Both the position numbers and the translations under genes were made by a program. 64,000 nucleotides of DNA from the NCBI GenBank assembly GCA_017416795.1, contig JAFQBD010000014.1, positions 8,842 through 72,841 on the forward strand. The letters are read 5' to 3'. Shown in pieces: positions 36,761-46,777 of the stretch. The DNA is from Bacillota bacterium (lineage in GTDB: Bacteria; Bacillota; Clostridia; Peptostreptococcales; Anaerovoracaceae). Below the pieces are notes generated by a model. It searched no databases and was not told where the DNA came from. It worked only from the letters and a program-made list of their open reading frames with translations. Positions within the stretch are counted from its first letter, which is position 1. Each line of letters starts with the position of its first letter.

Positions 36761-37348
36761 TTATTTATCATATCTGCAGATTATTTCATCTGCGATCTCT
36801 TTTCTTGAAACACAGCGATCCATTGCAGTTTTTTCGATATATCTGTGAGCATCAGGTTCGCTCATATTTTCATGACTTATCAACATCCATTTAGCACGGT
36901 TGACAAGACGGATCTCTTCCATCTTCTGTTCTATGGATGTTGTTTTATTTTCATAACGGCGGAGACGCTCACGAGAACTTATCATCCATGAAAGGGCGCG
37001 CTCCATTATTGTTCTTGAAGTAGGTTTTGGCAGTGTGAAAACACCGTGAGGAGAAACCTTGCTGTAGATCTCATCGTGGATATCGCTCTTGATCAACAGA
37101 AGTACGACTGCATTATTCCTGGAACAAGTATCCACAGCGAATCTTATACCCTGATCATCAGGCAGCGGAGAGTTTATAATGATAAAATCATATGACCTTT
37201 CTGCCAGCGAACGCTTAGCGCAGTTGATGCCGGAAGCAACAGATACTGTATCATAAAGAGACTCGGGAAGCAGTGAGGTCAGTGAAGCAGTAAATGTCTT
37301 AGATGCTGATACTATAAGGATGCTGTAAACACGCTTTTTGAGACTCAT
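36761..37348 (-). CDS. ANTAR-domain antiterminator with a degenerate receiver domain
   Basis: C-terminal RLVNRAKWMLI...MSEPDAHRYIEKTAMD ANTAR motif. The receiver has IVSA for the acidic pocket and IIINSP for the phospho-Asp. Confidence 0.9.
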   Translation of the reverse strand: MSLKKRVYSILIVSASKTFTASLTSLLPESLYDTVSVASGINCAKRSLAERSYDFIIINSPLPDDQGIRFAVDTCSRNNAVVLLLIKSDIHDEIYSKVSPHGVFTLPKPTSRTIMERALSWMISSRERLRRYENKTTSIEQKMEEIRLVNRAKWMLISHENMSEPDAHRYIEKTAMDRCVSRKEIADEIICRYDK

Positions 37349-37369
37349 CTGCAACCCTCCTTTCTTTTG

Positions 37370-38581
37370 TTATCTTTTGCAGTAAATGTCCAGTATATCG
37401 GTAGGTATATGTTTTTTGATAAAATCGCTGTCAGCAGCTGCTCTGCAGGCAGCTTCAAGATCCTGCGGCAGTCTCTTGTACTTGTCCAGTTCTTCGCTTG
37501 GGGCCTTGTAAAGATTCAGGTCGGCAGAAGGCGGAAGTTCCAGCTTGTTCCTTATGCCGTATATGCCTGCATATATCATCAATGCAAAGGCCAGGTAAGG
37601 GTTTGATGAAGGATCGGGCGAGCGCATTTCTGCCCTTCGATATTCTCCTGATGCAGCAGGGATACGAATCAGCTGTGAACGGTTTTCGCCTGACCATGAA
37701 ATGAATCCGGGAGCCTTGTCGCTGCCAAATCGCTTGTAAGATTCCTCGATCGGATTCAGGAAGATAGTCATATCTTCCGTTTTATCAAGGACACCCGCGA
37801 TCATTTGATCCATATGGTCTAAGCCGTCATCTGATTGTACAGAGATATTTATATGGAAGCCGCTTCCCGCACTGTCAGCTAAAGGTTTAGGCCCGAAGTC
37901 TGCATGTAATCCGTTTCTGTGAGCAACAGTCTTGACAATAGTCTGGAATGTCATAGCATTGTCGGCAGCAGTGACAGGGTCTGAATATCTGAAATCTATC
38001 TCGTTTTGTCCGGGACCGACTTCATGGTGAGAACTTTCAGGTTGGATTCCCATCTGCTCCAGAGTGAGGCAAATCTCACGTCTGATATTTTCCCCTTTAT
38101 CATCAGGAGCAATATCCATATAGCCTGCATTATCGTATGGGACCTTAGTAGGCATGCCATTGTCATCAAGCTTAAATAAATAAAATTCCTGTTCGGCTCC
38201 GAAGAAAAACCTGAGTCCTGCCGATCTGGCTTCAGATACAGCCTGTTTGAGAAGACTGCGGGTATCACATTTAAAAGGGGTGCCGTCAGGATATCTGATG
38301 CTGCAGAACATGCGAACGATACGGCCGTGTTCCGGTCTCCATGGAAGGAGCATCAACGTGTCGGCATCAGGATACAGCAGAAGATCTGAACGTGATTCAT
38401 CTCCAAAGCCTTTTATGCCCGATGCATCTATGGCGATCCCATAGTCAAAAGCGCGTGGGAGTTCTTCCGGCATGATGGCAATATTTTTTTGCCTGCCGAA
38501 CACATCACAGAACGCCAGACGGATGAATTTGATATCTTCTTCTTGAACAAATTGAATAACTTCGTGTTTTGAGTATTTCAT
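37370..38581 (-). CDS. Glutamine synthetase-like protein (type I fold, non-canonical)
   Basis: GAEQEFYLF, HHEVGPGQNEID, GSGFH, NRS..IRIP, EMRSPDPSSNPYL. The flap reads DKAP instead of YEAP. Confidence 0.85.
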   Translation of the reverse strand: MKYSKHEVIQFVQEEDIKFIRLAFCDVFGRQKNIAIMPEELPRAFDYGIAIDASGIKGFGDESRSDLLLYPDADTLMLLPWRPEHGRIVRMFCSIRYPDGTPFKCDTRSLLKQAVSEARSAGLRFFFGAEQEFYLFKLDDNGMPTKVPYDNAGYMDIAPDDKGENIRREICLTLEQMGIQPESSHHEVGPGQNEIDFRYSDPVTAADNAMTFQTIVKTVAHRNGLHADFGPKPLADSAGSGFHINISVQSDDGLDHMDQMIAGVLDKTEDMTIFLNPIEESYKRFGSDKAPGFISWSGENRSQLIRIPAASGEYRRAEMRSPDPSSNPYLAFALMIYAGIYGIRNKLELPPSADLNLYKAPSEELDKYKRLPQDLEAACRAAADSDFIKKHIPTDILDIYCKR

Positions 38582-38686
38582 GATCCTACCTTCTTTCTTG
38601 AACCATAAGATGTCATATTATATATCCAGCATTCTGAAAAAATCAACAAATATGTTTGAAAAAACAAATAAAAACAAAATTTATGG

Positions 38687-44700: not shown

Positions 44701-45671
44701 TGGATTATATGGAAACCCAGAGTGCTATAAAAATAATAAAAGATTTCTTTCAAACAGAACTTGCGAAGGGATTGAACTTAAGCAGGGTGACGGCGCCGCT
44801 TTTCGTAGCGCCTGAAACAGGCCTAAATGACGATCTTAACGGCATAGAAAGAGCAGTGTCTTTTAAGATAAAAGATATGGGAGAAAAACCTGTTGAGATA
44901 GTTCAGTCCCTGGCGAAATGGAAGCGTATGACTTTAGGAAAATACGATATTCAGGCAGGGCAGGGAATATATACGGACATGAATGCCATAAGGAGAGATG
45001 AGAAGCTTGACGATCTGCATTCCATTTATGTCGATCAGTGGGACTGGGAGAAGGTCATCACTAAGGAGCAGCGTAACGAAGGATATCTTAAGGAGACTGT
45101 CAGGGAGCTGTATAAGATCATTAAAAAACTCAGCATGCATATAGGCAGCATTTATCCCGGAACAGAATTCGATCTGCCGGAGGAAATCTTTTTCATTACT
45201 GCTCAGGAGCTTGAAGACATGTATCCCGGCAAAACTCCGGGGGAAAGAGAAAACATCATCGCCGAAGAAAAAGGTGCAGTCTTTCTCATGAAAATAGGCG
45301 ATGTTTTGAAATCAGGAGGCAGACATGACGGCAGAGCACCGGATTACGATGACTGGCAGCTCAACGGTGACATCATCTTATGGAACGAAGTGCTGGAAAG
45401 GGCATTTGAGATCTCATCGATGGGTATCCGGGTAGACGCCGAAACAATGGATGAACAGCTCAGAAAGTCCGGCATGGATGAAAGACGAGATCTTGACTTC
45501 CACAGGATGATACTTAACGATGAATTGCCGTATACCATAGGCGGAGGCATAGGCCAAAGCAGACTATGCATGTATTTTCTCAAAAAGAAACATATAGGCG
45601 AGGTGCAGGTTTCGATCTGGCCCGATGAAATGATAGAAGAATGCAAGAGAAATAATATTTTCTTGTTATAG
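44697..45671 (+). CDS. asnA: Aspartate-ammonia ligase
   Basis: [38 protein letters not shown]. Confidence 0.96.
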
Positions 45672-45682
45672 GGGATGACGAA

Positions 45683-46777
45683 ATGGAAGGGCTGATTTAT
45701 CTTGAAGATGGCACAGTTTTTAAAGGTCAGGGTTTCGGTGCTCCGGCTACTGCGGTAGGAGAGCTGGTGTTCAATACATCCATGACCGGGTATCAGGAGA
45801 TACTTACGGACCCATCATACAAAGGGCAGATAATCGATATGACATATCCTTTGGTGGGTAATTATGGTATAAGTGAACATGATAACGAATCCGATAAAAT
45901 ACATGCTTTCGGTCTGATAGTGAAAGATCTGTGTGAAACACCGTCAAACAGCATGTGTGTCAAAACTCTTGACCGGTGGCTCGATGAAAATGGTGTGCCG
46001 GGGGTATATGACATAGATACAAGGAAAATCACAAAAATAATAAGAAAAAACGGAACAGTAAAGTGCCTGATAAGTACTGAAGGGATATCCATAAGCGAGG
46101 CCAAGGAGCTATGTGATAAAACGATGCTTAGGAATGATTGGATGAAAGAAGTCTCGGTAAAGACAAAAACTGTAATAATGCCGGAACAGAAAAAAGCGGA
46201 TAAAACTTACCGTGTCGCAGTAATGGATTTCGGTGTTAAAGCCAACATACTGAACAGTTTGAAAAAAAGGGGTTGTGAATTGATATTATATCCATACGGC
46301 ACTGCAGCGGAAGAGATCCTTGCTGATGACCCTGACGGCATACTTCTGACTAATGGTCCGGGAGATCCTGAAGAGGCGACCGAAGCCATAGAAGAAGTCA
46401 AGAAACTGATCCAAAGTGAAATACCTGTCTTCGGCATATGCATGGGACACCAGATCCTCGCGCTGGCCTTTGGAGGGGAGACATATAAATTGAAATATGG
46501 GCACAGAGGGGGAAACCATGGTGTGTACGATAAGGATACAAAAAGATCATATATCACTTCTCAGAATCATGGATATGCAGTAAATCATGAAAGCATCATA
46601 CTTAAAGGGCTGGAAGTGACACATCTCAACTTAAATGATGGTACTGTAGAAGGTATGGCACATAGAGATTTACCTGTTTTCTCTGTCCAATTTCATCCGG
46701 AAGCCTCGCCGGGACCAACAGATACAGCATATCTATTCGATAAGTTTATATCTCTATTGACTTCTGTTCATATTTAA
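45683..46777 (+). CDS. carA: Carbamoyl-phosphate synthase small subunit, copy 1 (catalytic triad intact)
   Basis: FNTSMTGYQE, NGPGDP, GICMGHQ (Cys), FHPEASPGP. Confidence 0.95.
   Translation: MEGLIYLEDGTVFKGQGFGAPATAVGELVFNTSMTGYQEILTDPSYKGQIIDMTYPLVGNYGISEHDNESDKIHAFGLIVKDLCETPSNSMCVKTLDRWLDENGVPGVYDIDTRKITKIIRKNGTVKCLISTEGISISEAKELCDKTMLRNDWMKEVSVKTKTVIMPEQKKADKTYRVAVMDFGVKANILNSLKKRGCELILYPYGTAAEEILADDPDGILLTNGPGDPEEATEAIEEVKKLIQSEIPVFGICMGHQILALAFGGETYKLKYGHRGGNHGVYDKDTKRSYITSQNHGYAVNHESIILKGLEVTHLNLNDGTVEGMAHRDLPVFSVQFHPEASPGPTDTAYLFDKFISLLTSVHI

Follow-up and report, generated by a model that had tools for sequence, protein, structure and literature searches.

A 64,000-nucleotide (nt) stretch of a Bacillota bacterium of the family Anaerovoracaceae (assembly GCA_017416795.1, contig JAFQBD010000014.1, positions 8,842 to 72,841 of the forward strand; hereafter the window, with positions counted from its first letter) carries a rightward six-gene operon, purA-purB-guaA-pyrG-asnA-carA, and, diverging from it, a leftward pair of genes for a glutamine synthetase (GS)-like protein and an ANTAR antiterminator. 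Judging from sequence and gene context, we consider it probable that the operon is controlled by nitrogen-responsive antitermination, exerted by the ANTAR/GS-like pair at a hairpin, P1, in the leader RNA ahead of purA. In this reduced genome the operon appears to be the only detectable target of the system. The original prediction made for this DNA, that a sensor-antiterminator controls the nitrogen flux into nucleotides, is supported, at the level of sequence, by the anatomy of the leader, its conservation, its co-occurrence with the ANTAR family, its uniqueness in the genome and the housekeeping nature of the gene copies behind it. The window is part of contig C5 of an assembly of 1.94 Mb that is 99.96% complete, and DNA near-identical to it is contained in gut and sheep-gut metagenome runs.

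Genes were named by Pfam and NCBIfam profile searches against curated cut-offs. The features that carry the argument are as follows (aa, amino acids; bp, base pairs):

36761-37354, minus strand: ANTAR antiterminator with a pseudo-receiver domain, 197 aa (Pfam); alternative ATG start at 37348
37370-38581, minus strand: GS-like protein, 403 aa, candidate sensor (Gln-synt_N and Gln-synt_C), 15 nt upstream of the ANTAR gene
38617-38646, minus strand: promoter-like site of the GS-like/ANTAR pair, TTGATT-18-TATAAT (consensus scan)
38687-38715, plus strand: promoter-like site of the operon, TTGCAA-17-TATTAT (consensus match only)
38723-38742, plus strand: P1, putative antiterminator hairpin TAAAGGC-AAAGGC-GTCTTTA with a 7-bp stem and an A1/G4 hexaloop (folding)
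38733-38777, plus strand: predicted intrinsic terminator, a 14-bp stem (38733-38764) followed by CTTGTCTTTTTTT (terminator prediction)
38814-40114, plus strand: purA, adenylosuccinate synthase, sole copy (profile and tblastn)
40104-41528, plus strand: purB, adenylosuccinate lyase, sole copy (profile and tblastn)
41540-43075, plus strand: guaA, glutamine-hydrolysing GMP synthase, only full-length copy (profile and tblastn)
43090-44700, plus strand: pyrG, CTP synthase, sole copy; alternative ATG at 43066 (profile and tblastn)
44697-45671, plus strand: asnA, aspartate-ammonia ligase, the only asparagine synthetase found (profile and tblastn)
45683-46777, plus strand: carA, glutaminase site intact (GICMGHQ, FHPEASPGP), without adjacent carB (profile and motif reading)

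Each of the six operon genes scored above its own equivalog cut-off (NCBIfam/Pfam), and the five junctions from purA to carA, measured from start codons having Shine-Dalgarno sites, are -11, +11, +14, -4 and +11 nt long. Both the divergent arrangement first read from the DNA and its overlaps or gaps of at most 14 bp are thereby borne out, and the six genes would form one transcription unit with a predicted start at about 38721. Gut metatranscriptome contigs differing by 0.6-2% carry the ANTAR and GS-like genes together and also bridge the purA-purB, pyrG-asnA and asnA-carA junctions, which suggests that regulator pair and operon are expressed, with carry-over of genomic DNA being possible; since these data are assembled contigs, they do not resolve termination at 38777.

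Two competing folds lie between the promoter-like site of the operon and the Shine-Dalgarno sequence of purA. The hexaloop and 3' arm of P1 double as the 5' arm of the terminator, and the two folds are mutually exclusive. The whole leader folds with -29.7 kcal/mol (z = -7.5) and P1 by itself with -5.6 kcal/mol; because the leader fold is so much the stronger, termination is predicted to be the default state and P1 to need a stabilising factor. P1 begins 1-2 nt from the predicted transcription start, and the first and fourth bases of its loop, AAAGGC, are the A and the G at the two positions that define ANTAR substrates (PMC3369931). A P1-type leader occurs once in this genome: none was found before the long GS-family gene on contig C60 or before gdh on contig C3, and the GS-like/ANTAR pair has a plain promoter in the window, with no attenuator between its promoter-like site and the start codon. 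Searches of Rfam at gathering and permissive thresholds assigned the leader to no family and returned only tRNA, a glycine riboswitch and chance hairpins. A model with dual A1/G4 hairpins was also considered; its 11 genome-wide candidates were nearly all intragenic and none was followed by a terminator, and the model was dropped. The promoter-leader layout is repeated in G016, a second species of the genus. In that genome, about 310 nt of GC-rich, hairpin-rich sequence (L011 13290-13597) separate the attenuator from purA; the window lacks this segment, which is possibly an inserted element.

At least 561 relatives of the ANTAR protein were found in a species-representative genome collection, and the 80 best loci, together with one from the same genus, were compared. 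Their intergenic DNA contains the word RCAARGGYRT 103 times; 89 of the instances have a P1 stem of 4 bp or more, and in 61 of these 89 leaders the automatic fold places the 3' arm of P1 within the 5' arm of a terminator. Among the 80 distinct P1 sequences selected in this way, 98% of cells are paired and four of the six pairs vary on both sides, the shuffled and slid controls giving far lower values. The loop is nearly invariant (AARGGC), with C-G and G-U as closing pairs. The units behind the leader include about 20 operons of the type GOGAT-GSlike-ANTAR (GOGAT, glutamate synthase); GSIII alone or followed by amtB-PII, asnB, pyrG or guaA; purC-purB-purA-guaA-pyrG; purC-guaA-pyrG-purF; purC-carA; amtB-purF; and the six-gene operon of G016. 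The leader also stands ahead of gdh in relatives, and at least nine other genomes have it before pyrG, guaA, purC, purA, purB, purF or carA. Unlike in the window, the GS-like/ANTAR pair of most relatives is itself headed by the leader.

The canonical leader words (AAGGCAARGGCGTCTTT or TGAGCAARGGCGTTCAT) track the ANTAR family. Members of the family were detected at E <= 1e-20 in 85 of 300 sampled Clostridia genomes (~28%), and the words were found in 14 of the 300, of which 12 are ANTAR-positive (12/85 positive versus 2/215 negative genomes, Fisher p = 8e-6). Among the 14 genomes whose ANTAR proteins are the closest homologues, ten contain them.

The ANTAR domain (PF03861) spans residues 141-192 of the regulator with 58.5 bits against a cut-off of 27.3, and the receiver domain remains below threshold (Response_reg, 22.4 against 30.2). 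Asn61 occupies the position of the phospho-acceptor Asp and Ser16 that of the acidic pair, with Lys110-Pro111 retained, and both replacements are found in 78 of 78 family members, consistent with the pseudo-receiver that had been proposed for this protein. A search of the PDB matched Rv1626 (1s8n) over the full length (E = 1.6e-13), as well as AmiR (1qo0) and NasR. Its GS-like partner reached 338.7 bits against TIGR00653, the GlnA equivalog, below the cut-off of 429.15, and gave weak NCBIfam matches to GS-family ligases for other amines. The flap motif, GYEAP in solved GS (E. coli E327 position), reads SDKAP, and the Lys at the flap Glu position (Lys289 in the window) is found in 66 of 68 GS-like relatives; the ammonium-site motif, DGSS in GS, reads DASG, the Ser being replaced by Ala in most relatives or by Gly. 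The metal, ATP and glutamate ligands (E130, E132, H186, E187, E194, H243, R301, R306, E318 and R320) are kept in 67-68 of the 68. The protein looks catalytically altered, without the ammonium-handling residues, and is the likely sensor of the system.

The GS-like gene lies directly upstream of, and co-directional with, the ANTAR gene in 68 of 76 loci (median gap ~31 nt), and no other conserved sensor candidate was found beside the ANTAR gene among the loci compared. According to clustering of open reading frames and Pfam, the canonical layout is a split archaeal-type GOGAT followed by the pair, gltB1-gltB2-(fdx-gltD)-gltB3-GSlike-ANTAR, an operon that diverges from mixes of GSIII, amtB-PII, asnB, pyrG, purF, purC, guaA, purA, purB, carA and gdh. 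A nucleotide nitrogen-transfer gene lies no more than 10 kb from the ANTAR gene in 23 of the 50 loci that extend over 12 kb or more (pyrG in 16, purF in 7, purC in 6, purB and guaA in 5 each, purA and carA in 4 each). The exact six-gene order behind a P1-type leader is found elsewhere only in G016; other arrangements are leader-GSlike-ANTAR-purF in G005 and, in G014, asnB-purF-ANTAR adjoining a GSIII gene. The association of the pair with nitrogen-transfer genes, for which a neighbourhood search had been proposed, is a recurrent and conserved one in gut Clostridia and not a product of chance. The pyrG sequences of the window and G016 are split from eight other pyrG of the genus with support of 100/100 and group with ANTAR-linked pyrG of other families, in a tree that holds no ANTAR-unlinked pyrG from other families as a control; their position outside the genus clade suggests that the module was horizontally acquired. 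No pyrG match was found in 15 of 26 same-genus genomes, some of which are 91-96% complete.

The genes of the operon are not spare copies. Genome-wide tblastn identified exactly one purA, one purB, one pyrG and one asnA, which rules out the idea that the operon supplies extra regulated copies of these genes: the operon is the housekeeping set, whose separate existence elsewhere the original prediction had left to be checked. The guaA paralogue is partial, a stand-alone ATP-pyrophosphatase domain beside guaB on contig C45, and no separate glutamine amidotransferase (GATase) subunit of GMP synthase was found in the genome at tblastn E < 1e-5. The second carA (52931-54055) is 72% identical to the operon carA and overlaps carB (54048); it reads GIGLGHQ where the operon carA has GICMGHQ, with Gly for the glutaminase nucleophile Cys, and KHNA where the operon carA has SPGP. 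As the carA paralogue lacks the Cys and the guaA paralogue the GATase domain, the operon encodes the genome's sole CarA capable of glutaminase activity and its sole GuaA with a GATase domain. Non-aminating steps are encoded outside it: guaB on C45, pur genes on contig C7 and carB at 54048. The split GOGAT, amtB-PII and asnB have no matches in the whole genome, and gdh (C3) and a GS-family protein of ~640 aa with the canonical GYEAP flap (C60) are present.

Two further clusters on other contigs touch on these pathways. The segment C45:10006-15474 groups guaB, a short purC-type gene and the 325-aa GMP-synthase ATP-pyrophosphatase domain, and C7:36217-43081, read by eye, is a de novo purine cluster with purE, purM, purN, a PurF-like, a PurO-like and an AICARFT-like gene, and purD. 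The PurF-like protein, also read without a profile check, begins MGGVIGF, with Gly at the position of the catalytic Cys of the ANTAR-linked PurF of relatives (EECGVFG).

We propose that, by default, the terminator at 38733-38777 forms and transcription stops before purA. The ANTAR protein would bind the P1 hexaloop, stabilise P1 and deny the terminator its bases, and RNA polymerase would then read through into purA-purB-guaA-pyrG-asnA-carA. Because the ANTAR protein is not phosphorylatable, its activity is most likely set by the co-transcribed GS-like protein, which may serve as a sensor of glutamine or nitrogen status that holds or releases its partner via the pseudo-receiver, in the manner of AmiC-AmiR or GS-TnrA. 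Read-through would most likely be induced by nitrogen scarcity, the extra enzyme offsetting low supplies of the donors Gln, Asp or NH3. The original prediction held that this direction cannot be read from sequence; by analogy, the co-regulation of amtB-PII, GS and GOGAT in relatives, NitR (PMC6316151) and the C. thermocellum cluster point to induction under nitrogen limitation as most likely, so that the direction is not wholly beyond reading. The term 'dedicated', used there for the regulator, fits this reduced genome, where the lack of GOGAT, AmtB and AsnB and the presence of a single leader make the regulator appear dedicated to the operon; it does not fit the family as a whole, which is a general nitrogen-assimilation regulator of the NitR type.

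Outside the operon, the Cys-less CarA with CarB, the GMP-synthase ATP-pyrophosphatase domain and the Cys-less PurF-like protein form a possible ammonia-using set. Speculatively, CarB together with the Cys-less CarA, and the GuaA domain that has no GATase, may serve when ammonia is plentiful. The fuller picture, in which a GS paralogue without ammonium chemistry serves as the nitrogen sensor of the cell and gates a kinase-less, single-hairpin ANTAR protein with one target, nitrogen status thereby directly setting the amounts of the sole amination enzymes for AMP, GMP, CTP and Asn and of the one CarA with glutaminase competence, while ammonia-using versions outside the operon complete a two-tier donor strategy, is offered as a tentative possibility that we would not bet on as a whole.

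Several observations weigh against antitermination by the ANTAR/GS-like pair. Characterised ANTAR proteins need two hexaloop hairpins, and a single conserved one is found here; the apical loop of the terminator is an A1/G4 hexaloop in just 2 of the 61 leaders and so is not of the ANTAR type, which leaves this leader class with one recognition hairpin. The covariation in P1 mostly reflects two stem classes, ATGAGC/GTTCAT in the leaders of GOGAT and AAAGGC/GTCTTT in those of the divergent units, among instances that had first been filtered by a sequence pattern and for a stem. The degenerate leader pattern is no commoner than a reversed control, in 41 relatives as in the 300 class members, so that only the canonical words are informative. 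The physical complex between the GS-like and ANTAR proteins is one that we infer from gene adjacency only, and the direction of the response from regulon members of other genomes, which are absent from this one. Finally, the genus mate G012, which has no ANTAR gene, possesses the operon purC-purA-purB-(297 aa)-guaA-pyrG; since it exists without regulator or leader, the clustering of these genes is independent of this regulator. A different hairpin with a T-run (AATAGCTCT-CAAAG-AGGGCTATT TTTTG; L099 15700-15760) precedes the G012 operon and may be another attenuator.

The leader could be a true attenuator read by something other than an ANTAR protein (nucleotide-sensing reiterative transcription at the 5' end, as for pyrG of B. 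subtilis, a small-molecule riboswitch or another RNA-binding protein), with the pair a mere neighbour. The position of P1, within 1-2 nt of the predicted start, is one at which nucleoside triphosphate-sensing mechanisms act, and both the single ANTAR-type hairpin in place of the canonical two and the similar G012 operon, with its other leader hairpin and no ANTAR gene, would suit a reader other than ANTAR. We nevertheless regard it as quite improbable: the identical hairpin-terminator design is found before GS, GOGAT, amtB and gdh, which offer no reason for nucleotide sensing, A1 and G4, the loop positions that do not vary, are precisely those of ANTAR substrates (PMC3369931), and the canonical words follow the ANTAR family; moreover, P1 is too small for a ligand pocket and has no Rfam match. 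It is also improbable that the operon is simply a set of nucleotide branch-point and interconversion enzymes (IMP to AMP, XMP to GMP, UTP to CTP) with two passengers, its nitrogen control being incidental in a reduced and partly horizontally acquired module. The gene set of G012, present there without this regulator, the patchy occurrence of pyrG in the genus and the placement of the window and G016 pyrG outside the clade of their genus mates, as if transferred, all fit that picture. However, asnA and carA are not interconversion genes, and elsewhere the leader controls asnB, purF, purC, carA, GSIII and amtB in varied combinations whose common trait is nitrogen transfer and no single pathway. 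The 55 leader-controlled units examined point to nitrogen-transfer enzymes over other steps of the same pathways; guaB, the C7 pur genes and carB, for non-aminating steps, are encoded apart from the operon.

The role assigned to the GS-like protein can be disputed separately. It may be an ordinary enzyme, for example a GS whose mechanism has shifted or a gamma-glutamyl-amine ligase, that is only co-regulated with an ANTAR gene whose product senses otherwise. Its complete set of metal, ATP and glutamate ligands agrees with catalysis, GS-family ligases for other amines do exist (weak NCBIfam matches), and the orthologous gene of C. thermocellum has been treated as a type I-alpha GS (PMC9888227). 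Set against this are the order and spacing with a kinase-less ANTAR gene, near-invariant over the 68 of 76 loci, the fact that this family has specifically lost the flap Glu and the ammonium-site Ser and retained everything else, and the failure of any alternative conserved sensor candidate to adjoin the ANTAR gene. In addition, deletion of the type I GS of C. thermocellum reportedly 'deregulates nitrogen metabolism', to go by the title alone of Rydzak 2017, and this would be a regulatory phenotype. On balance, we find it unlikely that the GS-like protein is no more than an enzyme, and retain it as the candidate sensor of the ANTAR protein.

The family is NitR-type ANTAR nitrogen control, which is of a known kind. 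In Clostridia, ANTAR RNA targets were predicted before GS-ANTAR, GOGAT, amtB, asparagine synthase and a LysA homologue (PMC3369931, 2012, Table S2); that table has no entry before CTP synthase or adenylosuccinate enzymes, and a full-text literature search found no paper tying ANTAR to these nucleotide genes. NitR of C. saccharobutylicum NCP262 is proposed to antiterminate and is reported to induce GS and GOGAT genes on nitrogen limitation (PMC6316151, citing Stutz 2007), and the same architecture is seen in Clo1313_2030-2036 of C. thermocellum (PMC4676874). As in glnA-nitR-gltAB and Clo1313_2030-2036, to which orthology was judged by gene context and not by sequence comparison, the ANTAR gene of the window comes straight after a GS-family gene and has a link to nitrogen, and its relatives have the same split-GOGAT-GS-ANTAR operon type as C. 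thermocellum. In contrast to both systems, the window genome is devoid of GOGAT, amtB and asnB and has its sole leader before nucleotide and asparagine genes, the pair has no leader of its own, and the GS partner carries the flap Lys and falls below the GlnA cut-off. The NitR-type linkage to GS and GOGAT is accordingly absent from this genome and present in most relatives.

With EutV/EutW-eut of Enterococcus faecalis, NasR-nasF and AmiR-amiE, the system shares the ANTAR domain, the A1/G4 hexaloop and a 5' hairpin that overlaps a terminator (PMC3369931). It differs from EutV, NasR and AmiR in having one conserved hairpin, at the extreme 5' end of the transcript, in place of two in tandem, and in lacking a kinase, a NIT domain or an AmiC-type partner. 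AmiC-AmiR and NasS-NasT likewise combine a non-phosphorylatable receiver-like domain with an adjacent sensor gene and proposed sequestration and release (PMC3369931, PMC3795266), but the putative sensor here is a GS paralogue and not a periplasmic-binding-protein fold. There is precedent for a GS as reporter: that of Bacillus subtilis conveys glutamine status to TnrA and GlnR by protein contact (Wray et al. 2001, summarised in PMC6316151). In that case an active enzyme contacts DNA-binding, MerR-type partners, whereas here a GS paralogue that looks catalytically altered would act on an RNA-binding one. The pyrG attenuator of B. subtilis works by CTP-sensitive reiterative transcription and is not known to need a protein. 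As in the window, pyrG stands there behind a leader terminator that is overridden via the 5' end of the transcript; the leader of the window, however, is of a kind common to GS, GOGAT and amtB genes, and its loop is of the ANTAR type. The nucleotide and asparagine amination targets, the single-hairpin substrate and the Glu-to-Lys GS paralogue as likely sensor look undescribed in the literature searched.

Downstream of the operon, two further features bear on its extent and on its paralogues:

46828-49911, plus strand: lysE-type exporter gene, ddh and MATE transporter gene, closed by a terminator (49884-49911); the unit may continue through them (profiles)
52931-57248, plus strand: carA paralogue that has Gly for the nucleophile (GIGLGHQ) and overlaps carB (motif reading and context)

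No terminator was predicted directly after carA, the first strong one downstream being that at 49884-49911, and as none separates carA from lysE-ddh-MATE, the transcription unit may exceed six genes. A promoter-like site lies ahead of these three genes at 46757-46785, and they are not kept in G016. The product of ddh (47499-48485), meso-diaminopimelate dehydrogenase, also inserts ammonia directly, and no terminator separates this gene from the operon. Elsewhere in the window, a glycine riboswitch (55.6 bits) at 16213-16324 precedes an open reading frame at 16420, a tRNA-Arg(ACG) is located at 35431-35506, and the gene pair at 33603-34857 matches a kinase domain of anti-sigma type (HATPase_c_2) and a factor of the sigma-70 family, probably SpoIIAB and sigma-F. 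A palindromic word of the form TGCAAAGGCGCRCTTTGCA, present in many copies in and between genes (for example C12:8462, C42:18792, C43:755, C57:1992, C60:28608), looks like a dispersed repeat.

To our knowledge, gut and rumen Clostridia lack NtrBC, TnrA and GlnR, and for this reason their nitrogen control is poorly understood. With one pair, one leader and one operon, the window makes the questions of RNA-protein recognition and of the sensor easy to test, and these touch on the general questions of whether an ANTAR dimer can act on a single hairpin and whether a GS fold has come to serve as a pseudo-enzyme sensor. If antitermination by the ANTAR/GS-like pair is the correct reading, the module, present in ~28% of the sampled Clostridia genomes (n = 300), would be a main nitrogen regulator of these bacteria, with a reach that extends to nucleotide and asparagine synthesis.

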